Assembly (NCBI GenBank): GCA_000934665.2
Contig: KZ538111.1
Location: forward strand, 62,001 to 123,954
Source of the DNA: Catajapyx aquilonaris
Taxonomy: Eukaryota
Direction of reading: 5' to 3'
Length of the DNA stretch: 61,954 nucleotides
The notes under the pieces are model-generated. The model made no database searches and had not been told where the DNA came from. It was given only the letters and a program-made list of their open reading frames with translations. Shown here piece after piece: positions 2,179 through 54,028 of this stretch; position 1 is the first letter of the stretch; the number at the start of each line of letters is the position of its first letter. The translations under genes and the position numbers were made by a program.

Positions 2179-2729
2179 CAGTGCTGGACATTATTTCCGT
2201 CACACTGCTAGCGACATTTTCCGATGCGGCAGACGTGCAAATCGAATCATTGCGAGTAAGAAATGGTAGCTCTTGGGTGACATCACTACCCTTTGGACAC
2301 TCTCACTTACCGCCTGCCGGGGCGTTTTGCATGATGTGCTCATATCACCTGAGAGCGCCATGAGACCTTTCATTGTGCTATTATGTCGCGACCCTACCGG
2401 ACTACGCCGAAATTTATAGGTACAAAAGGGAAGCGCTACATGCGGGCCCAACATGGCCGCCGGCGACCATGTTGGGTCCCCCAATGTAGCGCTTCCCTTT
2501 TGTACCTATGAAGTTCAGCGTAGTCCGGTAGGGTCGCCACATAATTGCTCCGTGAAAAGCCTCATGGCGCTCTCAGGTGAGCACCTCATGCAAAACGCCC
2601 CGGCAGGCGATAAGATAAGATTAGAGGGGTAGTGTCCAGGGGCTGGCTCACACTCTATCACTTCGATGTGCACTTCTGCCGCATCGGAATATGTCGCTAG
2701 CAGTATGACGCGATTAATGTCCAACACTG
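2179..2729. mobile_element. Tc1-type foldback MITE (551 bp, palindromic along almost its full length)
   Basis: TA|CAGTGCTGGACATTA ... TAATGTCCAACACTG|TA; arms pair inward to a centre near 2458. Confidence 0.85.
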
Positions 2730-3872: not shown

Positions 3873-13436
<9,564 letters not shown>

Positions 13437-24348: not shown

Positions 24349-27300
24349 ATGCCGGTGGACATCAACAAGCTGACCGAGGGCTGGCTGGAGCTGGAGAGCG
24401 ACCCAGGTAAAGTGACACCGTTGCTTCCATCCGTACGACACTGACTGTGCTGTTCGATTTCAGGCCTGTTCACGTTGTTGTTGGAGGATTTTGGGGTGAA
24501 GGGTGTGCAGGTTGAGGAGATCTATGATTTGCAGAAGCCGTTGGAAGGACCCATTTATGGATTCATCTTCCTGTTTCGGTGGATTGAAGAGAGGAGGTCC
24601 AGGAGGAAGTTTTTTGATGAGAATGAGAGCTTCGTACGGGATGAGAACATTGTCAATAATATCTTTTTTGCACAGCAGGTTGGTATGACGGTTAGCGTAG
24701 TGTCCACAGCTTGGTGACGATGTGGATCGTTTCAGATGGTTCCAAACAGTTGCGCCACGCATGCCCTCCTGTCCGTCCTGCTCAACTGCCCCGACCTGCA
24801 TCTGGGAAGCACTCTCAGTCGACTCAAAATGCACACTACAGGAATGAGCCCAGAAAACAAGGTTTGTCAGCAGGATTTACAATAATTGTTCTGTAGTCTA
24901 ATTTTACAACATTAAAACATAACATAAAGTGCGGAAAACCAAACGACGATCTGACATCATCGTTTCTTACATTGTTGCTTTTTGTTGCTACTGTTGACTC
25001 ATATTGTTCCATGGAAACCTTGATGATGTCAGATCGCCGTTTAGTTTTCCACACTATAGGAGACATAACTAGTCTAGTTCGTTTGCTTTTCACTTAGGGC
25101 TGGGCAATAGGCAACACACCTGAACTAGCGTGTGCACACAATTCTCACGCCATGCCTCAGGCTCGTCGCCGCCGTGACAAGGGTGTTGGTGTGAGCACTG
25201 GCCGTTACTTGGGCGAGGCTTTCCACTTCGTGAGTTATGTCCCAATACGAGGACGTCTGTTTGAGTTGGATGGCCTGAAGCCTTACCCAATAGACCATGG
25301 CACGTACGGAGAAAAGGAGGATTGGACGGAGAAGTTCCGTCGGGTCATGACAGAACGACTTGGGATGGCAACAGGTGGAGAGCCCTATCACGACATCAGG
25401 TTCAACCTAATGGCAGTGGTTCCAGACCGGAGGATTGCCCTTAATCACAAGCTCAAGATATTGAGGACTAACCGGCAGATTGTGTTGGAGGCACTGCAGC
25501 AACTTGTCAAGCTGAGCCACACTGAAATGGCGCAGAGGTGTGAGGAGCTAAAGGCAGAGAAGGGTGGGAGATCTGATTTGCCCCCACCTGACGCATCGTC
25601 CTCACCATTGCCAGCACCATACATGCCAGTGCTTGAAACCCACAACTACTGCAAGAACCCACTGGTGGTGGGGGGAAGCAGTGGGGACGGCAGTGCCACT
25701 CCTGTTGCAGATCTTAACGTCAGCACAAGGTAAACATCCACGTTTATCATTGATGTAGCTGAACCTACACTCCGAATCACATTAGTGTGAACCTTATTGG
25801 ATACCCATGCGCCCAAGGGGTTGGTGAGCCAATGCTCCGCAAAATTAGTCCCCAGTATCTCTGGCTTTCTCGAAGAAACAGTGCTGGTACATGTAATTCG
25901 AATGCCTAATTATTATGGGCAGCCCATGGTGTAGCTGCAGCGCTACACAAACTTCACATTTTGTTGTGAAGAGCGGTAGGGCCTGGCATGTTGGGCACTA
26001 CTTTCGGGCAGTTCACCGAGCCCTTGGGCATATCCATATAGAAAAAGGTTAACTCTTATGTGAATCGAAGAGTAATGTACAGAAAACGAGAGAACGATCT
26101 GACGTCATCGTTTCTTCCATTATTGCTTTTTGTTGACACTTTACTGATATTGTTCTGTGAGGGTGTATTTCCATGGAAACCTTTAGGCGTCAGATCGTTC
26201 TCTCATTTTCCGCAGTCTACTTACTGCTGTTGTGTTTTAGTACGAAATACAAAGTGATACATTTGCAGCTCAACTGAAACTATGAGTGAAGAAGAGCCTC
26301 CAATGCCAGAGGGGATGAAAAAACCAACTGCGGAGGCCCGAGATGCGTCTGCTCCCCCTCCCCCTCCCCCCACCTCCCAAGCGTCTTCCCTCCACCCGGA
26401 CTACTCCCTCCCCCTGACCATCCAAACCTCTCCTGCCCCCAGCAGTTCCAGTACAGACACCTCCTCTGAGGTTGGGTCAGCGTTCAACTCCCCAACACAA
26501 GGATGCGGGTGGAGCTCTTGCCAGACCAGCCCTCTGTCTACAAAAGACATCAAGAAATTTGTGGTCATACGTGTGGCAGGGGAGGTTGGGAGAGGGGTTG
26601 AGGAAGCCAAGGCTGGAGATTCATCGGCCCAGTGCTCTCCAGTTGGTGAGAAGAGGGGCCATGCAGATGCGGAGGGGGCTGAGGCAGGAGTTGGAGGAAA
26701 GAGGCCTTGTGGGGAGACCAATGCAACAGAATCGGATGCAACTGTCAAGGTGGAGCCAGGTGTTGAAGGTTGGTGTCTCCCATTTCTGTCAGTTCACATT
26801 TGAATCAGAGTTTAAATTGTTTCCTCCTCATAGGCAAGGAACCACCTGCACTCTCAGAAGAGAAACCTGCCCCATCTTCATCCTCCTCATCCCCAACGGA
26901 GATGAGCATGGGGGCCGACTCTCACTGGATATCAAAGTATCCAGAGCTGTTCCAGCCGCACAACTTTGCCCCAAAAGACCTTCTGGCTCTGCTGAAAAAC
27001 CTGGAGGGGGAGATTGGGGCATGTGAGATGGGTGTTAGAGATGAGAATGACAAGCGCAAGAAGTACAAGGTGGATGACAGCCGCAGGACCCACAACTATG
27101 ACGAGTTTGTCTGCACCTTCCTGTCCATGCTGGCCCAGCAGGGGAAGCTGGCTGACCTGGTTAAGCAACACCTGCTGCTGCACAAGCGCCCAGGAGGACA
27201 GACCCAAGCTGCTGGAGGTGGGGGAGGCGGTGCTGCAGAGGGAGGCGGGCAGGGGGAGAGAGTTGGACCAGGGATTTCACCCAGGATTGGGGCCAGGTAA

Positions 27301-27497
27301 ATTGTTATCTAAACAAATGATGCAGGATGTATCGCATAGCTGCTGTCAGGAGCGCTAAGTCGTTGATAAGTAATTGCCGTAGGATCTGTTACATCCAGTC
27401 ACACATGCCCTCATTCAACAGGTCAGCAAAGGCAGATGGACGCAATACAACTCGGCGAAAGCGAGGACGCCCAGCAAAATACAGGCGCAGGAAGTAA
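24349..27497 (+). CDS. BAP1: Ubiquitin C-terminal hydrolase BAP1/calypso (PR-DUB catalytic subunit), about 689 aa
   Basis: Exons 24349-24406, 24464-24678, 24736-24861, 25098-25729, 26269-26768, 26834-27296, 27422-27497 (2070 nt). Motifs [15 protein letters not shown], catalytic [21 protein letters not shown]...LFELDGLK, C-terminal [13 protein letters not shown] and basic tail [14 protein letters not shown]. Confidence 0.96.
24928..25055. mobile_element. Short hairpin MITE in BAP1 intron 3; related copy at about 26080-26215 in intron 4
   Basis: AGTGCGGAAAACCAAACGACGATCTGACATCATC ... GATGATGTCAGATCGCCGTTTAGTTTTCCACACT; the internal TTCCATGGAAACCTT is shared by both copies. Confidence 0.7.
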
Positions 27498-29056
27498 ACA
27501 GCAAGGTGCCGTGACAAGAGGAGCTGCGCAAAGCAATGCGAAGCTGCAATAACACCTTGCTGTGTATGCAATTTTTTTTTTCTTTTGCAAATTTTTCCAC
27601 CAGGCTGACATGTCAAAATTATAGCATGTGTCTAGCACTAGGATAAGTGTATGCTCAGTACCCGTGGTTAATCATAGTTGGCTGTTAGAGAAGAAGGGAA
27701 AAAAAGAGAAAAGAAAAAAACGGATTTTCAATGGTATTGAAAGAGATGCTTCTGCCAATGGCAGAGATATTTTGAGTGATTAACGAAGGCTGCTGACATT
27801 AATTTCAGTTAGTCCTTTTTGCAGGCACTGACGGAAACTGGCTGTGAGAATTAACTTCCATAGGAAGCTGCGTGGATAAATTCATTATTGTTAACACTAG
27901 ATGACAGTATTTTTTTGCGGGTGGGGGGAACGCTCTCTCTGTTAATTAATTTTTTTTGGTCGGAGGTGTAGCTGTACGTGGGTAGGTGTTGGGAGGTAGG
28001 CCTGCTAATCTATGACAACTTCTCTACCAGTAGGATGGGGAAATCTCAATTTCGGAAAGAAATGTACATTTAACAGTGTGAGGTTTTCAGCAGAAGATAC
28101 TCAGCTCTGTAGATGTGTACAGTATTGTCCACTCTTGTTGATTTTTCATTTCTTCTCGAGTATTATTTTTTTAACCTCTCTATGTATTGACAATGTGTAA
28201 ATATTGGAAATAGGTTGTTCTAGTTAGGAGGTAACGTGCTTATTGTCCCATCCGCAGGTATATTTCAGTTTTTATTTGTTTGTCGTGGTATGTTGCGCCA
28301 GATCCTCCTCCTGCAGACGTCGCCAAATATCCTGTGAAACCAAGAGCTCCCAGGGTGTTATAAAATAAGGGATTTTAAATGTTAAAATTTATTTGAAGGA
28401 AATGCAGCAGTGAAGTATTGCAGGTGCAGCTATTTAAAATGCCAACAATGCACTGGCTTTACACTTGCCGCGACTAAAAGCCTGCGGACAATCTGATTGG
28501 TTGGGCTTCTTCAGCCAATGAGAACGTAGGCTTCCCAGGCGCAATTGCGCAGTGTAAATGTGGCGCGCTCAAAATAACGGGAATTTTTTGTTTAATCAAT
28601 TCTCGGCACATATTTTAAGGCCGTATTATTATTAATCGTAATTGCGTGAGAAAATGAATGGGTGAGAGAACTTTTTCTTTTTGTTTTGCGTAGGTGAGTT
28701 TGAGTGATCCAAGATGGCGTCGGCTTTCTTCCTGTGCACGGTTCCTGCTGTGCCCTGCTTGGTGCGATTCTTACGGTAGTAGTCTCCGCTTGAGCGAGGC
28801 CAACCAAGGAGGAGGAAACGGCGGTGGTGGTCACCGCACAGTAACCTGCCGAAAGGGGACGCACCAGCCGAGGGGGACAGCACGTGTGGAGCAGGTAGGC
28901 TGTTGTTATGGTGCCTCACACACCGCCAGCTAGATTGGCAGTGCTTCATTGCAACAAGTCTTTTTTAACTCCGTGTTGTGTTGCCTGGAAGGGCCCGCTG
29001 GAAGGGGCCTGGAGGAGGAGGAGCAGCCGCCAAGTACAACGTCCACACCTGGTGCA

Positions 29057-32000
29057 ATGGCCGAGAAGAATCAACGGTAAGGCTGGGCTGCGTCGGACCT
29101 GAACTCACTCTGGTTTGAGACGCTGGAATGCGTGTTTGGCTCGCGTTGGAGTTCACTGGGGCCAGTATGGCAACAGGTTGCATATTGGCTTCGTCTTAGC
29201 ACGTGGTGCATACCATGTGATTCGCTTAAACCAGCAGTTGTCAACCAGTGTTCTGCATGGTTTTATTGTGCGGGTTCAGCCGAAGTTGTCCACTACTTCT
29301 GGGGCGGCATGGTGGTCTAGTGGTTATGCCACTGGCCAGCCAAGCGGGAGGCCGGGGTTCAAATCCCGTCCCCGTCACCTCTGCTTGGCCGGGTCTTCTT
29401 CCGCTTTTCACCCGAGATGCCGGAGCGGAATTGCACTCCCTTCTCTGCTCGGGGCCAGGAGAAAAGGCCTGGTGTTAAAGAATGTCAAAAGTGGCTATCA
29501 CACGGCACCCTCCCTTGGGAATTTCCCCTTCCCCCCTAAGAGGGCCACGAGCTCTATCACGGGGTAACCAAAAAAGAAAAAAAGAAGGAAAAAGTCCGCT
29601 GCTTCTATGATTCACACAAAATCATTTTAAATGGGGAAACAATTTCAAAGTCTACAGCAGCCCCCTGTCACTCCTATGGTACACTCCTATGACACACACA
29701 GGAATATATCGGATATCGGTGGCAGCCACCTGAATCCTAGTCTGCAAACGCCCTCCAAGGAAAGGACAATTTGGGTTGGTTCCGAAGGTGGCCAACCCAA
29801 ACGACTCCCCCAGTAGATTCCTGTGGGGGGTGCCAGCGCCACGTTCCCCGCATGGCGGAGACTTTTATATTAACCTACCGCCAACACAGGGCTAGGCTGG
29901 AAGAGACGGGGCTGTCCCTGACAAGTGGATCATTCAGCAGCATTATTTGTAAGGTTGAGTTTGTAGGCCTATCAGATACTTATCAATGTGTGCAGATGGG
30001 ACTTCTTTCAAAGTGATGGCAGCACCCACATGTGGCAGCAGGGCAAGTCTTGTGGTAGTGACAAGTGACATTTTAAAGCATAAACTTGGTCAAACCTGTG
30101 CAAATTAGAGATAGGCTTCATAGCATTAATTTTTTTCCAGTACAACCAGTGTCGTATAACTTCCCAGTTCATGCACGTAGTTTTGCTTTCCAAAGATGAT
30201 GCCACCAATAAACTATTTCTGCAATAATATGACGGGTTTGATACTAGGCCACCACTGTAAACTGAATCACAAGGTTTTATCCGAGGTTTTATCACTCTGT
30301 AGTGCACGTAAAAGCTGCAAAACATGTTTACACTATCACAGATTAATTGCGAAATATCTTGAGGCGGAAAGAAAACAAAAATGTTACAGCCATGCATTAA
30401 AAAATGGCACAGGTTGACGCACTCAATTTAGCTCAAATTCAGCTGGTGTGTGCATGCACTGCAAGAGCAAGGGAAGTCCAGAAATTAATAGAAATTATTA
30501 TGATTGCAAAGTGTCTTATTAGTGAAGCACCATAAAGCGAAGTACTCAATCTAGTGAACATGGATTATCCTCCCTGTGGACCTGAAATGTCGTCACCTGC
30601 AAGCAACAAAGTGCCTGTCTTTTATACTAATGCAATGTGATATGATCTGTTGCAAGGTTGGGAAGTCCATCTGAAGATGTTGACAAGCTGAAGGAAAAGA
30701 CGGAAGAGCAGGAAGAGGAGAAAGATGAAGATCTGAAGCTTGTTATCAACGAAAGTGATACTGAAGAAGACGAGGCTAAGAAGAAAGCAAAACCAAAAAG
30801 GAAGCCGTCGCCTGAGAAAAAGGAGCTCCCAAGCAGTGGTAAATTTGTGACATAGCAGCTCGGATTATGATAAAATGGTAGTGTCTGGAAAGCGCAATGT
30901 ATTCGTGCTTTCTTTTTTCTTATGTAGAGGAGCCGATGTTTGTTGATCCTAGACTCCCAAAAGGATGGTACCGGAAGGTAATCCAAAGGCAGGGGGGTGC
31001 AACTGCTGGAAAATGGGACGTTTACATCCATAGGTAAGAGTAAATGGATGCAGAATTTTTTCTTCATTTTCAACACATAATAAATCAAAAAGTTTGTCAT
31101 TTCCAATTGAACATCTTGACACTGGTGAGGAATTATATTGTTGTAATTTCAGCCCCGAGGGGAAGAAGTTTCGCTCTCGTAATGAGCTCCGTGCCTTCTT
31201 TGACACGAGTGGATCCGACCTAGCCGCGGATGATTTTGACTTTAGTGTCACCGGCAAAGGTGCAGCAACACGCAAAGCTGGACGAAAGCCAGGTATGTAA
31301 CTGCATGAAACAAAGTGATTTTACTGCATTTCTAGGTGAGAAATTGAAAATATTTTTGGACACATGGATATTTATGCACTCGGGGTGGGGAGCAGCAAAC
31401 TCCGTAAAACATCCACCCTGATGGCACTTGTTCTTACGGGTGATGTCACCAGCATTAAATAACAAGCACAGTCAAGCCAGGTTTTTTTACTTGTTAGTTT
31501 GGTGCTCTCTGTACTAGTTTGTTTTTTACACATTTTCTTGACAAAAATGGAATGAAACTAAACATAAGGTGCGTTTACATGTGAATGATGTCCTCGCCAG
31601 TGGTAACATCATGGCGTAACCAAAGTAACCAGTATTGTGTGATCCGAAAATCGATTGTTACTTTCACCTCAAACAATTGGATTCATTGCTCGGCAATGAC
31701 ATCGCTCAAATTAATGTAAACGCCGCTTTACTTAATAATACTAATAGTAAAAACTGGTAAACACATAATAGTGTAACCTGATTGATGTCCTTTCTTGGCG
31801 TCAGCGGGAAAACCTGTCACACTCAACCCTTTGTCGTGCAGGAATAGACCAAGAATTTAAACTGACACAGGTTTTTGCCTGCAAGAGTTTTATTATAGTG
31901 GTTGTAGAGTAATGTTAATTTGTAGTCTAACAGCCCTATATTGATATTTTCATATTGATTTTAAGAAAAAGAACAGCCTCATGCCGGCCTGAAGGTGAAA

Positions 32001-35000
32001 TTGCCTCTCCGCACGGCTCGTAGTGCTGCCGCCGAAGCCAACTCAGATTCTGCTAAGGATTCTGGAGAGCCTGTGCGGAAGAAGGGGAAAAAGGCTCGTG
32101 CTCGAAGGAGGAAGTAAATTCCTGGCTCCTCATCCACTCTCCACCCATCATCATCCTCTCATATTGTTTTTAATTACCCTCACTGTTTTGTATTCACTGA
32201 AGTATGTGATTCACTAGCTCAAATGAAATCTGACGTGGTGGGAACGCAGTTCGGAATTAAAGGGGTACAGTATTCGGATTTGAACTCTAGCTTTGTGGTG
32301 GGAAAAGGGATGGGAACAGGAACACTATCACCGTTAGTTGGCGCCTTAATGACAGCCCAAGTGCACCGTTGTTTTAAACAGTGATTATTTTTCTTATTGG
32401 ATATGTGGACAAAAATAAAAATAACACTCGATGACGTGTAATCTTTAATTTGAAGACCCGTTAGCTTTTCCGAGCTGCGTAGCCTTCCCTGCAACTTCAT
32501 ATTGGATCAGATTGTCCAATAAGACTCCCGAGGCAACGGAGATTCACCTTGGCTACTTTTGCAGCTAAGTAAAATTGCTCTATTAGCTACTAAAGCTGCA
32601 TTCACATACCTGTGGGAAGCGATGAAGGGACATGAAAGAGCTGTTGATTGATGGTGTTACTTGCGGAACAAATACTTCAGGTACAGAAAAGCCTCTCAGT
32701 GTCCCACATTGCCAGTATGTGAATGCACTGTAAAAATGTAACCATGAGGGGAAAGAAAGAGAAGAATAGGCACTGTTGCCCCATAACTTATGTTAGATCT
32801 TCGCTGCCTTGGGCCATCAATAATAATAGGTGATGGGAAAATACCTGCTGTCCACTCCTCACCTTCCTCAACCAACTTCTGCCATCCTCGAAAGAAAATG
32901 GTAACTGCAATGACTGTGTACTGAAGTTGTTTTGTTGCTCGAGTGTACGTTGCAGTTATAGCTCTCTTTCATAGGATGGCAGATTGAACCTCCATGTATT
33001 GTTGCAAAGACAGGCACAGCTCTTCTCCTCTTTCTTTCGATTTCGTGTAATTTCTTAGTGGAATTAGCATAGCAGATATTTCATACAGTGAGAAGATTCA
33101 TAATAATGTTTCACAACAATAATATGAAACTGTCTCAATGGTGCTATCAAAGAGTTCTGCTATAACATATACGGGGTGTTTCAACTTTTTTGTCCGAATA
33201 GTTATCGGAAATATTGCACTATAAGCTGCTACTTTGTAAGCAGTGACTTGCAATCAGTTTGTCGGAGGAATGGGGAACATTCCCTGCGAATCTTAGGTTG
33301 AAGTGGCATACACTGCGTGCAAAGTAGCAGCTTAGTGCAATATTTCCGATAACTGTTCGAACAAAAAAATTGAAACACCCTGTATAATACCTCGAGAGAT
33401 CACTCGAGGTGAAATGTGAGGCAGGTTAACAATATGACCCAAGTGAAGATGGCGGCTTCCTCAGCCTGGCTAATGGGAAAGTATAGGGAGTACTTCCTCT
33501 AGGTATATATAGTATATATATTATAGCAGAACTCTTTGGGTGCTATACACAACGTCATGGCATCTTGCTGTTGTCACACTATTACGAATCATCTGTGATT
33601 TTTTATTATTATTATTTTAATTCGTGGCATTATACTTGAATAAATTATGAGAGGGTAAAACTAGAGAGGCAATCTCACATGTGTAAAAGAAAGCACCCTT
33701 ACAACTTGGCTAAATCTGCAGCTCAGAGCTTTTTGCATCCAGCGTTGGTTACTTTTTCTTGACTGGTTTGGCCACAGATTATTGCTATTACTGTAAATAC
33801 TTTTATTCAGAAATTTTGTGCATTGTTAATGCTTATTGGAAAGAGGAACTCTGTAGCAAGGTTACAAGGTAGCAATCGTAGCATGCATGCAGTGAACGTA
33901 TTGTTGCTTGGGAGCATGGGCATTCACTGGATTGACAAAGCGTCAAAAATGGAGTGCACAACGTATCGTAAATCTACAGCAGCACCTTATAGTAAGGCCA
34001 GAGTGCACAAGTGAAGAATGTCGACTGAGGGTTTGGCTTATGCGACAGGCTCTCCGGTCCAAGATTGTAGTGGTCGCTTGGTAATTTACCTGGTAGCACT
34101 GATCAGATGGGAGAATTTGAATGGCCCGTGGATTTGTACAGCCAGTATGTCAGTCATCTTGGATTCGACAGCAATGCCAGTCAAAATTCAATCTTCCTCC
34201 CACTCTGAGCCATTCTCTTGATATGAGTTCACATTTACGTGTCTAACCTGCAACCCCCACCCTCTCTGTGCACTATTGTAGATATTCAGTAGCAGTTAAA
34301 ATTAAAATATCTGGAACATTTTCCAAGGGATGGAGGAAGTCACAAAATTGGCGTCACTTTATGCCAAGAGGTTGGCTACAACTGTGGTTGGGTACTCTGT
34401 GGATTGTCAGTCCTGCCCTGCATGGCAACTGTAAACAACCCCCCCATGGCAACCTGGCTTGCTGTTCCAAGACTGGAGGCATACTGAGCATAGTCACACG
34501 TGTTGGCACCAGATAGTACTCCTCTTTTTGCTTCTTTTTTTCCCTGCTCAATCCACATGTGCAGTTACTTTTGCAAGCATTTGCATGCAAATGAGTGCTG
34601 GTACTGCAGCCCTCCCAACGGAACGTTTGTGCTAGTCGTGAAAGGGGGGAGAGTTGCTATCTCTTTCAGTTTACCCAGTGTTGTTCAAACAGACTGGGTG
34701 GAGTTATCAGTACCTAATTCCTCCCACTTTGGTGATAACCCTTACCACAAGTAGTGTGTAGCCTTGACTGCCAGTTATCCACTGTGTTTAGCCTGGTAAC
34801 ACAGCCATTTGACATGTTATAGGCATTTCCTGGAAGTCCCCGGGGCAGGAATTCATACCGTTGGGAAAACGGGCAAACATGGAGCCCAAGAAGCGTGGCC
34901 GCAAGCGCAAGGTTGTGGCGTCACAGGTGGACTCTGAAGACCCTGCTCCAAGCCCTGCAAAGATACGGAAGGTAGCTGAGGGAGGTGCTGCCAAAAAGAG

Positions 35001-36321
35001 GCTGCAGCAGCGCATCGTGCAGCAGCGCATAAGAAGGAGAAGGCTCAACTACTGCATACGGAATGTGTCTCCAATCAAGCTGAAGATCAAGACGGCAATG
35101 CTGGCAGAGGAAGACAAGAGCAGCAGTGAAGAGCTGGAGGAGGAAATGGAGCAGGAGGAGGGGAAGAGTAAGAAGCCAGGCGGCCGCAGCCACTATTTCA
35201 AGAAGGTAGCTGGGGAGAGTGAAGTGGAACCACCCAAGTCGCTTAATAAGGACGTGTGGGTGCCACCAAAGTCTCCATTTCACCTGGTGCAGGAGAAGCT
35301 CTATGATAATCCTTGGAAGCTGCTGGTGGCCACCATGTTTCTTAACCGGACTGCAGGTCAGTTTTGAATTTCCCTTGGTAGTTCCCCCCTGACTACAGAT
35401 TGAGCCTTGTTTGTGGGACATATCACGCATAACTGAAGAAACAGTCTAGACGCAAACATATTAGAAGGAATCCAAGCATCAGTATGTTTCAAAGGGAATT
35501 TCACATGGCATCTTGGGGTGGTGTGCTGAACATTTTTTCCCTATTTTTTCTGCAGCAGCTGTGTTTGTTTTTCCTAGTCTGACATTTTTTCTTACTTTTT
35601 GCCGGTTTTGTCGTCTATGATATTGTGACAAGACTGCTCGTTGTTGAAGAGTAAGATACATTTATGTCAATAACAACATACTACACACTATATTATGTAC
35701 TCTAATGTGCTTTATTACAGTAGGCCTACACTAGTAGCTGTCTTAATGTGCATGAATTTGACGTTAAACTGTACATATTACATAGCGTTTGGTATTATCA
35801 ACAGTTTCAAACATTCGTGGGTTGGTTTGGAACCTATCCCCTGTAGACAAATCGGGGGGAATTCTGCAATACATTCTGAAAGCTGTGTATTAATTTGTGT
35901 GTGTCTACAGGAAAGGAGGCAATTCCCATACTCTGGAAGTTTTTTGAGCAATGGCCTACTCCCGAGTCTGTGGTGGAGGCAAACTGGGTGGACATAGCAG
36001 CCCTGATGGCACCTCTGGGCCTCAATGAGAAGAGAGCAAAGACTATGAAACGTTTTTCAGGTACTTTTTCTTGGCTCCACTTTTTATGACCAAACAAATG
36101 TAACTATTGTGAGCGCAAGATTAACTCTACTTCATTGCACAGATGAGTTCCTGACCAAGAAGTGGAAGTATCCCAATGAGCTGTTTGGGATAGGGAAGTA
36201 TGGGAACGATTCCTACCGCATGTTCTGCGTGAACGAGTGGCGCCAGGTGCATCCAGACGACGTCATGCTCAGCATCTACCACAGTTGGCTCGCCACCAAC
36301 TGCATCTACATGGGCATATAG
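29057..36321 (+). CDS. MBD4: MBD4/MeCP2-family protein: MBD plus HhH-GPD glycosylase domain, long isoform about 436 aa
   Basis: Exons 29057-29076, 30657-30838, 30928-31033, 31153-31292, 34823-35356, 35911-36060, 36143-36321 (1311 nt). [42 protein letters not shown]...FDFSVTG. Glycosylase: [32 protein letters not shown]...[16 protein letters not shown]. The start exon is inferred from phase only. Confidence 0.93.
29301..29593 (+). mobile_element. tRNA-derived SINE
   Basis: A box TGGTCTAGTGG, B box GGTTCAAATCC, A-rich tail; homologous to the copy starting at 56806. Confidence 0.8.
31568..31726. mobile_element. PIF/Harbinger-like MITE; a similar element lies at about 32594-32730
   Basis: TAA|GGTGCGTTTACAT ... 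ATGTAAACGCCGC|TTTA; second element GCTGCATTCACATAC ... GTATGTGAATGCA. Confidence 0.5.
31966..32117 (+). CDS. Alternative terminal exon of MBD4/MeCP2 giving an MBD-only isoform of about 199 aa
   Basis: Acceptor attgattttaag| is phase 1, matching the donor at 31292. Encodes [56 protein letters not shown] at 32256 and AATAAA at 32414 follow. Confidence 0.7.
33172..33382. mobile_element. mariner-type MITE
   Basis: TA|CGGGGTGTTTCAA ... TTGAAACACCCTG|TA with arms of about 65 bp. Confidence 0.8.
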
Positions 36322-37399
36322 TGGTGGTGTTCTGTGTTTTTAGCCATTTGTTTTGGACCCTACCTGAGAACCATTTTTATACAGATAGGACAGTATTTGT
36401 TGGGCTTTCAAGGGAGAGAGACAATCATGTCTTTTCCTTGGGGTCGATGTCAGACTATCATTCTTTTTGCCTTGGGGCGAATCGTGTCAAAATAAATTTT
36501 GTAGGTTGATATTTGGAATAATTTGGAATTTTAGGATTGTAACGTACTTGCCCCAAACATGGAGAGGTCTGTGATTACCTTATTACCTCACTTAAAGCAG
36601 CATGCCGCAATAACCATCATTTTGAACATTGTCAGTTTTTTTTGGAATGCTTCAGGTGCTGTACTCAAATAATGTTATATGGTGAAAAATGGGCGAGTGT
36701 ACAGGGCTGTGAAAATAATTATGCAAGTTCTGATGCACAGTGCATAGACTGTGACCAATCCCATTGTCAGCCTGCTTTGGGAGGGGAACCTCCTCCTACC
36801 TACTCGCAAAGGATCAAGACAAACTCCTCAAGTCCGCTTTTCTCAATGCAGCTTGATGGTTGCAGGTCTCATACAAGTAGGTTCTACATAGTTCAGGCAT
36901 ACTGGCATCAGTATCAGTATCAGTAATATTAATAAATGAAAGGGCTAATTTAAAAAAAAGTATCTCCCCAAAAAATCAGCAAATTAAGAATAAGGAAAGT
37001 ATTAAGCAGTCCCCACGGTACATCAAAAAAAGCTGCACTTATGGTGCACTTGTTCCTTAGACCCATTTGGTTGATTTGACCCTTAGTTCCTTTCATTTCA
37101 TCCCTTAGGACCCCCAAAATTGGGGGTGGAGGTGCAGATTAACAAATTTGGAAAAAAAAAAATCCAAAAATCTCCCTCAAATTATCTTGAAGACGATTAC
37201 ACATGAATCAGACCTGCTGAATATGATGATGCTGTTTAGGATGTCATCTGAGCGATGGAAGTGACATAATAGAGGCCATATTTAAAAAGGGCAGCCCAAT
37301 ATGACCATTGCATTCAAAGTGACCATACCTATATGTAGGGTATCGTTTCGTTGGTATTTCTTGTTCGATCACCAGAACTGCGCCAGGAAGGAAGGTTGG

Positions 37400-37750
37400 C
37401 AAGGGAGGTCCCATGTTCTGAGGCACTGTCTGAATTTCTTGGCTGGTGTTTTCTTTCAAGGTGTTGATGGATTGTGGTTTGTTTCGGTACACCTACCCAT
37501 AAGAAGTAATCAAGCGGCGTAAGATCGGGCGAAAGTAGTGGCCAAAGTCCCTTCGACATGAATCGGTCATGATGGCATGTGACGTGTGGCATGTGTACCG
37601 AAACAAACCACAATCCATCTTGAAAGAAAATATCATTCAAGAAATTCAGGCAGTGCCTCAGGACATGCTGGCCAGGACCTTCCAAAATATGGAGCGTCGT
37701 GTTCAGCTGACCTGGACACAAATGGTGGCCATTTCCAGCACATGTTGTGA
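37400..37750. mobile_element. Degenerate Tc1/mariner transposase 3' remnants, two copies in inverted orientation
   Basis: Minus strand WPLLSPDLTPLDYFLW then VYRNKPQSINTLKENTSQEIQ; plus strand VYRNKPQSILKENIIQEIQAVPQDMLARTFQNMERRVQL. Confidence 0.8.
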
Positions 37751-37828
37751 GGCCATTTCCTTTCTCACATAATAAGGCAAGTTCAATTCAAATTTCATTG
37801 GGATATTTTCATTCATGTTACAGTTCAA

Positions 37829-38248
37829 GAAACCATTTACGGGATTGGTTTCTCGCCGGAGAGAAACCCTTCGACTGGATTAGCTTCTTTCCGGGGAGAA
37901 ATCCATTAGTGAAATGGCTGCTCTCCGGAGGGAAACCATTTACGTGAATGGTTTCTCGCCGGAGAGAAATGCTTCGACTGCATTGGCTTCTCTCCGGGGA
38001 GAAACCCATGTAGTGAAATGGTTGCTCTCCGGAGGGGTCCTATTTCCGTCATTGGCTTCTCTCCGGGGAGAAACCCATGTAGTGAAATGGTTGCTCTCCG
38101 GAGGGGTCCTATTTCCGTCATTGGCTTCTCGCCGGAGAGAAACCCATTTATTGACATGGCTGCTCTCCGGAGGGAAACCATTTATGTAATTGGTTTCTCG
38201 CCGGAGAGAAACCCATCAACTGAATCGGCTTCTCTCCGGAGAGAACCC
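37829..38248. repeat. Tandem array of 12 palindromic 22-bp units (GGTTTCTCTCCGGAGAGAAACC-like) with 12-13 bp linkers
   Basis: Period 34-35 bp; an exact 69-bp dimer is repeated at 38001 and 38070. Confidence 0.9.
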
Positions 38249-40686: not shown

Positions 40687-42622
40687 ATGGCCTGCTTTGG
40701 AGTTCACGTGGGATCCAGCTCCGTGTGCCTGGCCGTCTGCAAGGTGAGGAGAGCTCTCCGCCGGTGGCCGGCCGGCCCCCCCGAGTAACATTACTTGCTT
40801 GTTTTGCAGGAGGGCAAGACGGGCGTGGTGACCAATGACGCCGGAGAGAGAGTCACCCCGGCCATCGTCGCCTTCACGGAGGACGAAAAGGTAGGTGGTT
40901 GCATACACTGTTCCAAAGGCATCCTCGCATCATCAAGACCATGCCTTGCAGCTCGTTGGAGTGGCCGCCAACCAGCAGTTGGTCCGCAGCGGAGCCAATG
41001 TGGTAGTGCGCAATAAGCACTTCATGGGGAAGGGGAAGGCGGATGTGCAGCCAGAAGACCTGGGGAAAGGGCACCCATGCAAGCTGGTCCCATTGGACGA
41101 CAGCGTTGAGTATGAGGTCGCCTTCCAGGGGAAGCAGGCCCGATTCAACACCCAGGACATTGCCACGCTCCTGTATCGGAAGATGCACGGTACGTACTTG
41201 CCCTAGGCACACGTCTTTGCTTGTTTGCAGCTGACATTGTCTTGCCTTACAGAAACAGCGTGCAGTTACAGTCACAGCCAATCTGGAGAGACCTTGCAGG
41301 CAGTAATCACGGTGCCTCCGTCATTCATGGAGAAAGAGCGTCGACAGGTAAAGGCTGCTGCGGAATTGGCCGGATTCCAGGTGTTGCAGGTCGTTTCTGA
41401 ACCTGTGGCTGCTGTCCTGGCTTATGGAGTGGGACAAGGTGACGTGGAACAAGACTGGTAAGGACTGGTGTACTGTCTGCTTAGAATGCCCAAGTATTCC
41501 TGGGAAACATAACCTGTCTGGGTTGTGATGAGCATATTTGCAACTTGGGAAGGGATTGATATGGTTGGGGCTCTTATGCATGATGCCACAGCATTACTTT
41601 GAAATAGAAATTCCCTGTTTTTAGTACCTGCCTGGTGTATCGTGCTGGAGGCACATCTGTGGACGCCACCCTGGTCCATGTCCGTGGTGGAATGTACTTT
41701 GTTGAAGGGTATGAGAGGGACGAGGGATCTGGGGGGCAGCTGGCAACCACAGATCTGGCCTCTTATCTGTCAGAGGAGTTCTACCGCCGCACACGCTTGA
41801 GGCCGGAAGAAGAAAGCATGCGTTCAGTGCGCCGACTGCGGGCTGCTGCAGAAGAAGGCAAGCGAGTGCTCTCCACTGGAAGCTCTGCACAGTGCCTGGT
41901 GGAGAGCCTCTGCCAGGGGGCTGACCTGGCCGCCACTGCTTCTCGGGCCAGGTTTGACAACCTTGTGGCCACACTGCTGCCCCGTTTCTTGGCTCCTGTT
42001 ACCAGACTGTTGGAGAAGACAGGTGCAAGTGTGGACAAGGTGATCCTGGCAGGGGGTGCAACCAAGACTCCTCGCTTGCAGCAGGCCTTGGTGGAGAAGT
42101 TTCCAAGTGCTGTTGTGATGTCATCCATTCCACCTGACGAAGTTATTGCAACAGGGGCAGCCTACCAGGCAGGATTGGTCACAGATCCATGGGATCATGG
42201 GGATGAGTTCAAACTTACTGCTGATATTCAGGCAAGTGCACACGTTCCTGTGCAATGTATATTTTTAAATAAAAGCTCACTTACAATAAATGTCTCCATT
42301 GCAGGTGGTACCAATGGAGCTTGCATTTGCCACCGATGACAGCTGTGATCTACAGTGCATCGTGCCTACTGGCTCACCTATCCCAGCTAAAAGGACTATG
42401 AAGGTACCTGTCGGGGACACTGGAGACGTGGTGGTACATGTTTATGAGGTGGGCAGTAATGAACGCAAGCTGTTGGCGGACCTGGAAATGAAAGAGCTTG
42501 GAGAAAAACCGCAGGTCAACCTTACCTGTCACGTTAGGCTGGACGGCACAGTTCATCTGGCACTTACCAATCAAGCCAGTGGGCGAGTAATTAGCGTGGA
42601 TGTAGATGGCGAGGAGGAGTAA
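40687..42622 (+). CDS. HSPA14: Heat shock 70 kDa protein 14 (Hsp70L1, ribosome-associated complex subunit), about 501 aa
   Basis: Exons 40687-40743, 40810-40890, 40952-41189, 41253-41457, 41625-42231, 42305-42622 (1506 nt). [78 protein letters not shown]; short substrate-binding domain without a lid. Confidence 0.93.
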
Positions 42623-42680: not shown

Positions 42681-45600
42681 TTAATTACCCATTATTTTCC
42701 CCCACAATTCATCATCACTGTCTGGTTCCTCTTCAACCTCTTGGACGGGTTGTTCTTGGACCGTTTCCTCTGGAGGGACTACTTTCTTGCCAAAGATTCG
42801 TTCATACTCTTCAATGGTGCCAATCATTGATGGGATTTGTTCCTCCTCCTCTGGTGCAGCTTCCTTTGGGCTGTCCTCAGACTTGCTGGTGTTCTGGAGT
42901 GACTTAAGTTTATTGCGAACTTTCCCATACATCTTGCTGGCTGACACCACTTTTTGAACTTTTTGGCTTTTGTACCAACGCTGGTACCATGTGGTGGTAC
43001 TACCCTTTGCAGACATCTCATCACTTTCTGCATCCTTTTTAGTCACTTCCGATTCTTCCATAGCACATTCTCCTTCAATCACATTACTTGCTTCTTCTTT
43101 GTTGCCTCCTACTTCTTCACTGTCCTTTTCAGTCACTTCTGATTCTTCAATGGTATCCTGTCCTTCAATCACGTGAGTCTCTTCTTTGGGGCCTTCTAGT
43201 TCTTCACTGCTGTCTTCAGCAGTCTGGCCAACAGCCTCTTCCTCCCTCTTGTCCTGCATGTCACCATTCACACTACCATCTACAGTTTCACATGTTTCCC
43301 TAATTTTATTACCTTCACTTTCCTTGCACTCAGAATTTCCACTCGGCATGTCATGGTGCACATCCGCTGGCTGCACTACACTACTACTTGGATTCAACTG
43401 AGGAGAAGGTGAGTTACTAGACACGGGAAGTTGAACCTCTGCTTCGGATTTGTCCTTGTCGAATTGTGACACTTCAGTTTGTTTGGAAGTTTGTGGATCC
43501 TGCTCAGTTGGCACACATCTGTTTTTCTCCCCTTCCTTTCGCTGCTCATTTTCTTGTATATTGCTATCAGCTGCTTCACTGACTTGTATATGGCCGCTTT
43601 CTGCTTCAGCACTGATTGGTACTTCGGTAGAATCTGGCTTTCTGTTCCTTTTTGTCTCGTTTGGAGAGTCTTTGTCACTGAAAGCCGTGTCTCTTTCCGT
43701 TAATAATTGCTTGCGGAGAGAAAAAGGCTTAATTACAAGTGGCTTCCAAGCAGTGGCAGAGCTGGGAGAACCTGGAGACCTTGAGCCTGACCTGGACCCT
43801 TCTTCCATGTCTGCATCTATCTCACCTTCCTCCATATCCTCAGTCCTTGCTTGAACCTGGGAAGTCTCCTCGTCACTGTCATTCTTGGACCTCTTTCGGT
43901 ACTGCCTTGGGACCTTTTCTTTCTCTCTTGTCTTTCTGTCATGCTTCCTTCGTTCTCTGGACTCCGGCACTATTTTTTCTCGTTGGCTTCGCCACACTGC
44001 CTCTGCTTCATTGCTGCTTCTCTTACTTCGGTAAACTACTTCTGCTTCAGGTCGCCTCTTGCTTTTGGAGACGTGTGTTTCCGCCGTTTTCCATTTGCTT
44101 TGACCAATAGCGTCTGCTTCACATTTGCTTTTCTTCCTTCTGTGGCCCATTTTTTCTTTGTGTCTCCTTTTGCTTTCAGACACTTTGGCTTCGGTACATT
44201 TCCACTTGCTTCGACGGACTGCTTCTGCTTCACTGCTGGGTCGCTTCCTTGAAATATGAGCTTCTATCTGGTTGCTACCCTTCTTGCTCTGACTGGCTGT
44301 TTCTGCTTCAGAAATGCACTTCTTGTTTCGTACTTCAGTGCTGCTTGGCTGAAATTCCTCCTTTTCACCTGCTGCTTCTTCCCCTTCTTCAGATGACACA
44401 TTTTCCAGTTCGCACGAATTGTATTCAACTTTTTCGGATGTCTCATGCCTTTGCAGTAGAGCTTTGATGGCCCTGGCTCGCATTTCCAGCTCCAAGAGTT
44501 CCATAAGAGTTTTGCCCTGCACTTCCTTCTTTGCCTCTTCCTTCTTCTTCTTCTTCTTTGGCTTTTTCTTCTTCTTGTCTGACTCTGGTGTCTTTTTGGC
44601 TTTCTCTTTCTTTCGAGACCCTTCTTTCTGCCGAGACGTGCTGGGTTGTGGTTCCTCTTCCCGTTTCTCTTCCTCCTTTGGCTCAGGAGATTTGTTCTTC
44701 TCTCCCTTCTTCTTTGGCTCAGGAGATTTGTTCTTCTTCTCTTCTTTCTTCTTTGGATCAGGAGATTTGTTCTTCGCTTCCTTCTCCTTTGGACCAGGAG
44801 ATTTGGTCCTCTCTTCCTTCTTCTCTAGCTTAGGAGACTTGTCCTTCTTCGCTCCTTCCTCAACCACATCCTTCACTGAGCTTTCAACAGGTTCCTGTGT
44901 CACTTTTTGCTTCACCCGACTACTCGATGAATCTAAAATGAAATTTTAGAAATACATATTTAAAATAATTTAAACCAACAAAATAAAAATAATTCAACTG
45001 TGTGAATCTACAATATGTAAGGTGTTCAGCTATACATGAAGGTCCATTTCTCTGTCCACTTGAAACAATTTATATTTGCATTTTTGGAATTGGTATGTAA
45101 CAGCATGTGTTTTGAGTCACATATTGCTAACTAAGCTCATTAAATTTTAGTGAAGAATATATCTCGAAAAATTGAGCATCACCTTTCAATGCCATAAAAA
45201 GTCGCAAAGCATTGTTGCCGCTGCAGCAACAATCCCAATGGAGTAGACACTCCTCAAAAAAGTGTCACCGTCTCTTGAATTGTGGCTCTCCACGGCTCTT
45301 CCCAGCATCGGTGAGCCAGTAAGACCATGGGTGAGCCAGTGTATACTCACTGATGAGCATGTTGGTGAGCCGGGAGAGCCAGGGTGGGCCGCAGAAGGCA
45401 AACTATGTCATATGATGAGGAATGATGAGGAACAAAGGCATGTTTTGACCCGGCTCTCCACGGCCCACCCCGGCCCTCCTCGGCTCACCAGTGAGGGTGT
45501 ACACTGCCTCTCCGAAGTGACTACCCCCTTGAACAAACCCACTCGGCTGAGGATTGCGTAAGTCTTGCCTCAAACTGGTTTAAAGTTTGCTTTATTACAA

Positions 45601-53188: not shown

Positions 53189-54028
53189 TCAATTAGGTTT
53201 CTCCTGCTTGGATGCAAATGCCTCGTAATAGTGAGAGTCAGGTTCTGACAGTGGCACTGCACAAGCCACTAGGTTGTCAAATGAATGAAATGTGAACAGT
53301 TTCACGCTTCCCTTCTGGTTACACAACTTTGAATTCTTCAGCGCGACAGTCACACAGTGATCATCATCAAGTAGTGTCTCCTCAAACACCCAATCATTCT
53401 GCAATTCCCCATCAATATATAAACATGAATCGGTAATAACAGACCCCTTTTGAACAGCAGACTTTGTCATGAAACTCAATGTCTGCAGGTCACTGTAAAT
53501 ACCCGTCCCTACAGCTTTCACGTAGCTCTCTTTTAGACACCAGTTCCGCATGAACATGTTCAACTGTAATTTCTCTGTGCCTAAAGATTTAATGGCATTC
53601 CACTCAGTGGGTGAGAACTGACGGTTCATAACTCGAAAGAACTCTCCAATGCTTTTACCCCCACTGTACTCAAACTTCATCACATCTATGCCCACTGGAC
53701 AATTCTCAGCAGCAAGCACCACAAAATCACCCGAGTGCGACACATTAAAATCCAGCTCTGAGCAAGGGTTGGGCAGTTTCTGGCTCAAACATGGCTTTCC
53801 CTTGTCAGTTCTTGTCAGCTGGACACTGTCGTATGGCATTCCCACCTCCTCACAGAGTAGTTTCCTAAGAAGCAAGCGTCCCACTATGGCACACTTGGCA
53901 TCCTTCTGAAACACATATCGTCCGATTCGTTCTTTTTCCTCGGACTGGATACACCTTGCAGCAAGAGTCCATTCAGCCCGAGTAGGAAGCCATTTGCCAC
54001 AGTTGAATGCCCACCGCACACTTTCCAT
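53189..54028 (-). CDS. AASDHPPT: L-aminoadipate-semialdehyde dehydrogenase-phosphopantetheinyl transferase (Sfp-type PPTase), 279 aa, intronless CDS
   Basis: MESVRWAFN...EEKERIGRYVFQKDAK...RTDKGKP...FNVSHSGDFVVLA...VGIDVMK...WCLKESYVKAVGTG. Probable 5' UTR exon about 58050-57829 (YY1-like motif 58036-58046, GAG|GTAATT donor) spliced to an acceptor at 54132. Confidence 0.96.
   Translation of the reverse strand: MESVRWAFNCGKWLPTRAEWTLAARCIQSEEKERIGRYVFQKDAKCAIVGRLLLRKLLCEEVGMPYDSVQLTRTDKGKPCLSQKLPNPCSELDFNVSHSGDFVVLAAENCPVGIDVMKFEYSGGKSIGEFFRVMNRQFSPTEWNAIKSLGTEKLQLNMFMRNWCLKESYVKAVGTGIYSDLQTLSFMTKSAVQKGSVITDSCLYIDGELQNDWVFEETLLDDDHCVTVALKNSKLCNQKGSVKLFTFHSFDNLVACAVPLSEPDSHYYEAFASKQEKPN

Follow-up and report, generated by a model that had tools for sequence, protein, structure and literature searches.

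The stretch of DNA analysed here (the window) comprises 61,954 nucleotides of contig KZ538111.1 from Catajapyx aquilonaris (assembly GCA_000934665.2, contig positions 62,001 to 123,954, forward strand), and its region 28710-36694 (+) holds one gene, whose exons were placed from GT..AG joints in RNA-like contigs together with the sequence. Our best explanation, to which we give a probability of about 0.6, is that this is an undivided MBD4/MeCP2-type gene with two alternative 3′ ends, one yielding a 199-residue protein in which a methyl-CpG-binding domain (MBD) is followed by a short tail, the other a 436-residue protein in which the same MBD is joined to a glycosylase domain. The alternative exon, its junction with the MBD, an unspliced run of transcript past its stop codon, its coding-like composition and a two-output logic of the same kind in a second lineage were all observed. 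An earlier note, made from the sequence alone, had proposed that choice of the last exon switches this gene between a repair enzyme and a pure reader of 5-methylcytosine (5mC). Its coordinates, splice phases and product lengths, as well as the stop codon TAA and the hexamers ATTAAA (32256) and AATAAA (32414), were all re-derived from the sequence unchanged.

Transcript evidence for an alternative last exon

The branch point of both 3′ ends is the donor at 31292 that closes the second MBD exon (...AAGCCAG/gtatgt), which is in phase 1 with one base left over. Two acceptors, ttttaag/AAAAAG at 31966 and ttatag/GCATTT at 34823, each preserve the reading frame from this donor, and joining the coordinates gives 199 residues through the former and 436 through the latter. 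The alternative exon lies 673 nt beyond the donor and its peptide contains a GLKVKLPL motif and a cluster of Lys and Arg residues.

Transcripts were sought in a public run (X1) of unrecorded kind, available as contigs, in which 29% of the words sampled from 30500-36500 occur; no run on record as RNA was listed. The contigs of X1 were aligned to positions 27000-38000, where stretches lacking contig cover carry no weight, and, since they show eight GT..AG joints, they derive from spliced RNA and were taken as RNA-derived; the alignments described here are eight of 111 pieces. A contig of 1143 nt matches the window with 0 mismatches and has joints at 28892>28990, 29075>30656, 30837>30927, 31031>31151 and 31290>31964, the last of which fits GT..AG when the cut is shifted by +2, that is, to 31292/31966. 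The alternative last exon put forward in the earlier note is thus used in RNA. The same contig is unspliced across 31964-32410, through the stop codon, and ends four bases short of the AATAAA at 32414; contig depth is 0 in the bin 32505-32871. The exon therefore shows what is expected of an alternative last exon: a junction from a shared donor, a stop codon of its own, no depth beyond it and a hexamer at 32414. As the stop codon lies within the last exon, nonsense-mediated decay would not obviously act on the short form.

The three glycosylase exons are linked by another contig, 1238 nt long, whose start at 34821 equals the acceptor at 34823 within the ambiguity of the alignment; the 3′ untranslated region (UTR) of the long form extends to 36694 (contig piece 36140-36694). 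Contig depths were 42.1 for the short form and 7.9 for the glycosylase part, figures that do not rank the isoforms since contigs cannot give ratios.

The same contigs bear on a different use of the exon, namely that it serves chiefly as an internal cassette exon or a poison exon in which 31966-31994 (29 nt, donor AAG/gtgaaa) would be spliced to 34823, out of frame, or to 34849, in frame, tuning enzyme dosage or the linker. A donor-like site is indeed present at 31994/31995, calculation by hand agrees that the frame is recovered by joining these 29 nt to 34849 but not by joining them to 34823, and contigs lose rare variants. Nevertheless, the sole contig that covers this site passes 31994 unspliced and continues for 416 nt, and no such joint is among the eight listed. 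Onward splicing at 31994, which the earlier note had named as the case that would refute it, was accordingly not seen, and we regard a mainly internal use of the exon as very improbable.

Identity of the MBD and glycosylase domains

The assignment of the gene to the MBD4/MeCP2 type, also made in the earlier note, was upheld by a Pfam MBD and an MBD4-type glycosylase end. The two exons that encode the halves of the MBD (30928-31033 and 31153-31292) score 27.5 and 21.1 bits to Pfam PF01429, whose cut-off is 21, and both thus belong to that family. Among solved structures, MeCP2 chains are the best matches to the first half (38 bits, versus 20-23 for MBD4 chains) and to the second (29-35 bits versus 15-19 for MBD4 chains), with MBD2 and MBD3 chains scoring about 21 bits, so that by sequence the domain classes as MeCP2-type. 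In the alignment to MeCP2 chains, QRQ..GKWDVY and KFRS stand opposite QRK..GKYDVY and AFRS. The aligned Arg, Asp, Tyr and Arg are presumably R111, D121, Y123 and R133 of MeCP2, which contact 5mC, and the predicted 5mC-contact residues are preserved. The MBDs of vertebrate MBD4 are described as more diverged than those of MeCP2 (PMC3757391). The label "MeCP2-like" in the earlier note is therefore apt for the MBD (29-38 bits versus 15-23 for MBD4 chains) but not for the 50-residue tail, for which no relative was found.

The last glycosylase exon matches human MBD4 glycosylase chains with 85 bits (E 1.6e-23) and has the GNDSYR segment, with the catalytic Asp, identical. The preceding exon (35911-36060), taken alone, scores 22.2 bits to Pfam HhH-GPD, under the cut-off of 26.2. 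A protein search with exon 34823-35356 gave only two matches, the MBD4-type proteins P0001 and P0002, which cover its C-terminal 18%, corresponding to the start of the glycosylase. P0002, from Haliotis rufescens (1046 residues), has two tandem MBDs (two Pfam stretches) before its glycosylase, and KLVVKMNF after the second.

Coding character of the alternative exon

Codon usage of the alternative exon was assessed with a log-odds score trained on the other coding parts of the window, and compared with 11,551 stop-free 49-codon windows of its non-coding DNA. The exon reaches 0.41-0.52 bits per codon when read in the predicted frame, versus -0.12 to -0.42 in the other two. Its score was matched by 48 of the 11,551 null windows when the training set excluded this gene and a K/E-rich neighbour, by 38 when the other exons of this gene were added and by one when all coding parts were used. 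Openness by itself is weak evidence, the chance of 50 open codons being (61/64)^50, or about 0.09. The sequence of the exon occurs once in the window, which rules out a repeat or transposon fragment as its origin.

A second lineage with two predicted products

A pattern search of metagenome contigs with an alignment of the second MBD exon gave 391 pattern matches, which reduced to 15 loci (numbered with L below). Six of these, L001-L006, form with the protein P0003 a family (the L family) in which a glycosylase-less form is built in another way. L001, L002, L004 and L005 are spliced, mRNA-like contigs in which the MBD intron has been removed and which read through a donor embedded in the second MBD exon; each has a frame that runs from Met through the MBD and a tail of ~340 residues to a stop codon, followed by a 3′ UTR of 320-470 nt, and Pfam found the MBD alone in their proteins. 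L001 has 11 A at its very end. In L003 and L006, which are genomic, come from related species and contain both MBD exons, the second MBD exon stays open for ~340 residues to a stop and encodes the same tail, and ~0.8 kb downstream of it lie exons that match the linker and glycosylase exons of the window.

The embedded donor, AAAG/GTAAGAG, is in phase 1 like the donor of the window, lies five residues past GKG and fits an in-frame acceptor. Its eleven nucleotides are identical in all four distinct sequences, while adjacent synonymous sites vary. The last ~50 nt of the 3′ UTRs of L001 and L004 align at 82-87% identity to sites in L003 and L006 that lie past the stop codon of the tail but before the following exon, which places the 3′ end of the tail form inside an intron of the enzyme form. 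Long stretches of the tail are invariant among five distinct sequences; the blocks shared by L001-L006 and P0003 include SNVKLKVKVGYTATGAMIRP, RKKKRRF, EPVAGPSGLQK, a run of D/E followed by LDY, and a C-terminal MQVVVIGD..H.YAKPH.

The locus of the L family thus makes a constrained glycosylase-less MBD protein through a composite terminal exon, and very probably makes the enzyme form as well. What the window gene and the L family share is this two-output logic and not the sequence of the tail. Pfam recognized no domain other than the MBD in the L-family proteins, and the L002 tail alone gave no usable match in the ESM Atlas. Its single match in the PDB (E 1.1) was taken as chance. For the whole L002 protein the nearest entries in the ESM Atlas were chordate MeCP2 clusters (0.84, 0.81 and 0.78), a result that is a lead only and is probably driven by the MBD.

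Relatives of the tail and weighing of the alternatives

Several results weigh against a selected function for the short form, or against our reading of the gene as a whole. The 50-residue tail had 0 matches at E ≤ 0.001 among 1.84 billion representative proteins and 0 in the PDB at E ≤ 10, and a word-index search among longer proteins gave 29 candidates, 0 of which passed. No significant match resulted when the tail was compared by BLASTP with L015, L002 and P0002, and a profile of the L-family tail, run against 2599 open reading frames of the window, ranked the alternative exon 26th (E 48). Since no search found a relative of the tail, selection on it is at most putative. A third group of loci (L007, L008, L009 and L012) has an MBD exon that ends directly after GKG, and no tail exon was found within the 1.7-2 kb between its MBD exon and its glycosylase exon, so that a glycosylase-less form is not universal. 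With regard to transcripts, the junction 31292>31966 was found in one run, in contig form and of unrecorded kind, and contigs give no isoform ratio, strand or ends. No poly(A) tail was seen in these contigs, which cannot give transcript ends, and no contig among the pieces listed crosses 31292>34823. The presence of MBD and glycosylase in one transcript is suggested by frames that fit over 436 residues; the long form as we model it rests on this continuity, on the start of the glycosylase contig exactly at the acceptor 34823 and on relatives that have both domains (P0001 and P0002).

These results suit the explanation that the short transcript is a by-product, in which premature cleavage and polyadenylation in the long intron, a chance acceptor and a luckily open frame yield a message without a selected function, the effect of which would be at most less enzyme. 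The lack of a tail homologue in every search, the chance of about 0.09 for the open frame, the related lineage that shows no such exon and the dependence of the junction on a single run all speak for it. However, all the common exons were assembled into this exon without a mismatch and the enzyme exons were assembled separately, at most about 0.4% of the stop-free non-coding windows reach its in-frame codon score and both other frames are negative, and the L family maintains a glycosylase-less form under clear constraint. We therefore consider a by-product unlikely, though it is the rival that carries the most weight.

A different origin of the tail was implied by the earlier note, which had likened GLKVKLP in the exon to GKLLVKMP of MeCP2. 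The tail would then be a shortened, true homologue of the start of the MeCP2 transcriptional repression domain (TRD), and the short form a partner-recruiting adaptor of MeCP2 type. Residues 216-226 of MeCP2 are SPGKLLVKMPF, a patch whose binding to the ADD domain of DNMT3A requires K219, K223 and F226 (PMC9798253). AGLKVKLPL of the exon scores 18 (BLOSUM62) against GKLLVKMPF, a score equalled at 16 of 79,875 positions of the window in six frames; the chance of such a match over a 43-position segment is ~0.009, with the caveat that the motifs compared were chosen by eye after the exon had been seen. Similar patches follow the MBD in other members of the clade, namely P0002, L013 (KLVIKMNF) and L015 (LVVSLPLKRTRK), and for the 14-mer of L015 the best match across the whole window falls in the alternative exon (rank 1 of 66,844). 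At L015:634-894, in an unrelated contig, the second MBD exon itself appears to continue into a basic tail of 50 residues that ends in ...LVVSLPLKRTRK and a stop codon, with the size and style of ending of the tail in the window. The MBD, moreover, is itself MeCP2-like.

Against a true TRD homologue, the pattern derived from this set without L015 fits the exon at only four of eight positions, and at least four fits occur at 156 of 82,680 window positions. Compared with the mollusc-type motifs of P0002 and L013 the exon is unremarkable (p 0.47 and 0.74), its patch keeps neither the K219 nor the F226 position, and the KLKVKV block of the L family is nearer to IKLKIKTAM of the long-form exon (tied for the top of 79,875 positions) than to the tail. 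BLASTP and profile searches were blank, and within its 50 residues the tail has no element like AT-hook 1 or like the NCoR/SMRT interaction region of the TRD; the PDB, the representative proteins and the word search all gave 0 matches, which leaves the marginal match to the nine-residue patch. The homology to the MeCP2 TRD was thus not borne out by any search, the resemblance of GLKVKLP to GKLLVKMPF being only marginal, and we treat it as a minority possibility and an improbable one.

The second likeness to MeCP2 that had been drawn was PKKRGRK. It is identical to seven residues of AT-hook 2 of MeCP2 (AEADPQAIPKKRGRKP; PMC5028900), yet it lies in exon 34823-35356 and hence in the enzyme-bearing long form, not in the short one. 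The same source reports that the AT-hook character of this element is barely detectable, and Pfam gave no AT-hook match at E ≤ 1.

Proposed mechanism and significance

Returning to a gene with two alternative 3′ ends, we infer translation of the short form, its binding to DNA, the poly(A) site, the junction 31292>34823 and the biological role from the evidence above. In the short route, the donor at 31292 would be joined to the terminal exon at 31966 and the message would end near 32410-32440; in the long route, the terminal exon would be skipped and the donor joined to 34823, giving the 436-residue MBD-glycosylase. The choice would most likely be a competition between the acceptor at 31966 with its downstream poly(A) site and splicing to the distal acceptor. 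The 199-residue product is predicted to be a basic protein, with several basic clusters, that has a charged N-terminal region, a complete MBD and the tail of 50 residues bearing GLKVKLPL and the K/R cluster. It would bind methylated CpG as the long form does, having lost base excision, and might therefore serve purely to read methylation or else occupy the sites at which the enzyme acts and so compete with it; a role as reader or adaptor is just as plausible. A model for such competition is provided by truncated human MBD4 without its glycosylase, which has been proposed to be dominant negative over the wild-type enzyme (PMC4767479). Of the switch between repair enzyme and reader, the use of the terminal exon in RNA and a product with an MBD, a basic tail and no glycosylase are supported, whereas the junction to the enzyme was not directly seen.

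MeCP2 has long been regarded as a vertebrate invention. The earlier statement that vertebrate MBD4 and MeCP2 derive from one ancestral gene agrees with surveys that group such invertebrate genes into a single MBD4/MeCP2 clade, duplicated in vertebrates, and that call the invertebrate members MBD4 (PMC8330077, PMC6673714 and PMC7826176). According to one review, conservation in invertebrates is limited to MBD2 and MBD3 (PMC3438687). No description of a natural glycosylase-less isoform of invertebrate MBD4 was found in the literature searched, although automatic genome annotations may list one. If our reading is correct, a glycosylase-less reader form of the MBD4/MeCP2 gene exists in two lineages, built in two ways, one of which uses a last exon that is MECP2-like and clearly constrained. 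This points to a way in which a single gene with two isoforms could have become two genes in vertebrates, and makes the origin of MeCP2 testable. It also calls for caution in studies of invertebrate methylation toolkits, as counts of "MBD4 present" may conceal a reader with a different job.

A broader and more speculative proposal, which we hold only tentatively and think unlikely as a whole, is that the ancestral bilaterian MBD4/MeCP2 gene was a two-output locus, making an MBD-glycosylase and a reader that ended after or within the second MBD exon. The vertebrate copies would then have partitioned these outputs, the read-through reader becoming MECP2 and the spliced enzyme MBD4, and the ADD-binding patch of MeCP2 would have its ancient equivalent in the patch L-x-V-K-[LM]-P-[LF].

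Gene structure and neighbourhood

The exons and 3′ features of the gene are collected in Table 1, with the L-family exons that match its enzyme part. The ATG at 29057 is the first past an upstream in-frame stop and is the start codon common to both products. Ahead of it, in the 5′ UTR part of exon 1 and within the RNA-like contig, is an upstream open reading frame of 21 codons (MASAFF...) from the ATG at 28714 to a TAG at 28777-28779.

Table 1. Features of the MBD4/MeCP2-type gene of the window, and exons of two L-family loci that match its linker and glycosylase exons.
Feature	Position	Strand	Content	Evidence
Exon 1	28710..28894	+	5′ UTR	Joint 28892>28990; start 28710 inferred from length of 1143-nt contig
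Exon 2	28992..29076	+	Start ATG 29057 (gcaATGg) and first 7 codons	Joints 28892>28990, 29075>30656
Exon 3	30657..30838	+	Charged N-terminal region including acidic stretch	Contig joints and translation
Exon 4	30928..31033	+	First MBD half	Pfam MBD E 2.5e-6; contig joints
Exon 5	31153..31292	+	Second MBD half	Pfam MBD E 2.4e-4; joints 31031>31151, 31290>31964
Alternative last exon, coding part	31966..32117	+	50 codons including split codon, TAA 32115-32117	Joint 31290>31964; codon usage
Short-form 3′ UTR	32118..32410 (contig extent)	+	ATTAAA at 32256	Unspliced contig piece 31964-32410
AATAAA hexamer	32414..32419	+	Candidate poly(A) signal, 4 nt past contig end	Sequence
Long-form exon 1	34823..35356	+	Linker and start of glycosylase domain	Second contig from 34821, joint 35353>35908; frame continuous with donor 31292
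Long-form exon 2	35911..36060	+	Glycosylase, helix-hairpin-helix part	Joints 35353>35908, 36057>36140
Long-form exon 3	36143..36321 coding, TAG 36319-36321	+	Glycosylase end	Match to glycosylase chains of human MBD4 (85 bits, E 1.6e-23)
L006 exons	5089-5442, 5682-5750, 5828-6065		Match to linker and glycosylase exons
L003 exon	2290-2649		Match to linker and glycosylase exons

Two other elements lie in the introns of the gene. At 33168-33386, in the long intron, is an element resembling a miniature inverted-repeat transposable element, whose inverted arms of 54 nt, separated by 111 nt, have 93% complementarity; the RNA-like contigs aligned to it show letter differences and single-base gaps, and it is probably multi-copy. 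The intronic stretch 31404-31770 has a summed contig depth of 136 with loose ends on both sides and probably represents a repeat whose expression stems from another site. A search of Rfam gave 0 families.

Elsewhere in the window, an apparently single-exon open reading frame of 279 residues at 53192-54028 (-) matches human AASDHPPT, a 4′-phosphopantetheinyl transferase, over 278 residues (272 bits, E 4e-80), and this gene may be intronless in the window. Another open frame, at 42684-44945 (-), encodes 754 residues with a very high content of K, E and S, in which units resembling KSPEPKKK recur. By eye, we take 8873-13436 (+) to be a gene for an ELAV/Hu-type RNA recognition motif protein, 25098-28040 (+) a gene for a BAP1-type ubiquitin hydrolase and 41608-42622 (+) a gene for an Hsp70-family protein. 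Two exons of the gene at 25098-28040 (+) are joined by a contig of run X1.

Comparison with known systems

The long form, as predicted, resembles vertebrate MBD4 (MED1) in its order of N-terminal MBD, linker and C-terminal helix-hairpin-helix glycosylase, and in its last exon, with 85 bits and an identical GNDSYR. It differs in that its MBD scores far higher to MeCP2 than to MBD4 chains, and in its linker, for which no similarity was detected, since relatives match only 18% of exon 34823-35356. Human MBD4 has early-ending spliced forms that are without parts of the catalytic domain (PMC6651865); the short form of the window gene, in contrast, is produced by a terminal exon of its own, placed directly behind the MBD, and involves neither exon skipping nor late alternative donors. 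The cancer-associated truncated forms of human MBD4, which result from frameshifts in coding A-tracts, likewise keep the MBD and lose the glycosylase, but these are somatic mutations whereas the window gene would reach a comparable product by normal RNA processing.

Vertebrate MeCP2 is the best structure match for both MBD exons, and the short form resembles it in having, after the MBD, a basic tail that is encoded by the last exon and is probably disordered, and in a patch of 8-9 residues of that tail similar to GKLLVKMPF. On the other hand, the window tail has 50 residues versus about 320 in MeCP2, neither an NCoR/SMRT interaction region nor an AT-hook 1 is detectable in it, and the short form is an isoform of a glycosylase gene where MeCP2 has a gene of its own.

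The L family is the closest parallel in logic, with ~70% identity over the second MBD exon, a phase-1 donor after the MBD and a choice between glycosylase and glycosylase-less products in one locus. Its tail, however, is ~340 residues long, continuous with the MBD exon and strongly conserved, whereas that of the window gene has 50 residues, occupies a separate exon and has no detectable similarity to it. Exon 4 of vertebrate MECP2 contains the second half of the MBD and the whole remainder of the protein, a composite-terminal-exon layout like that of the L family.

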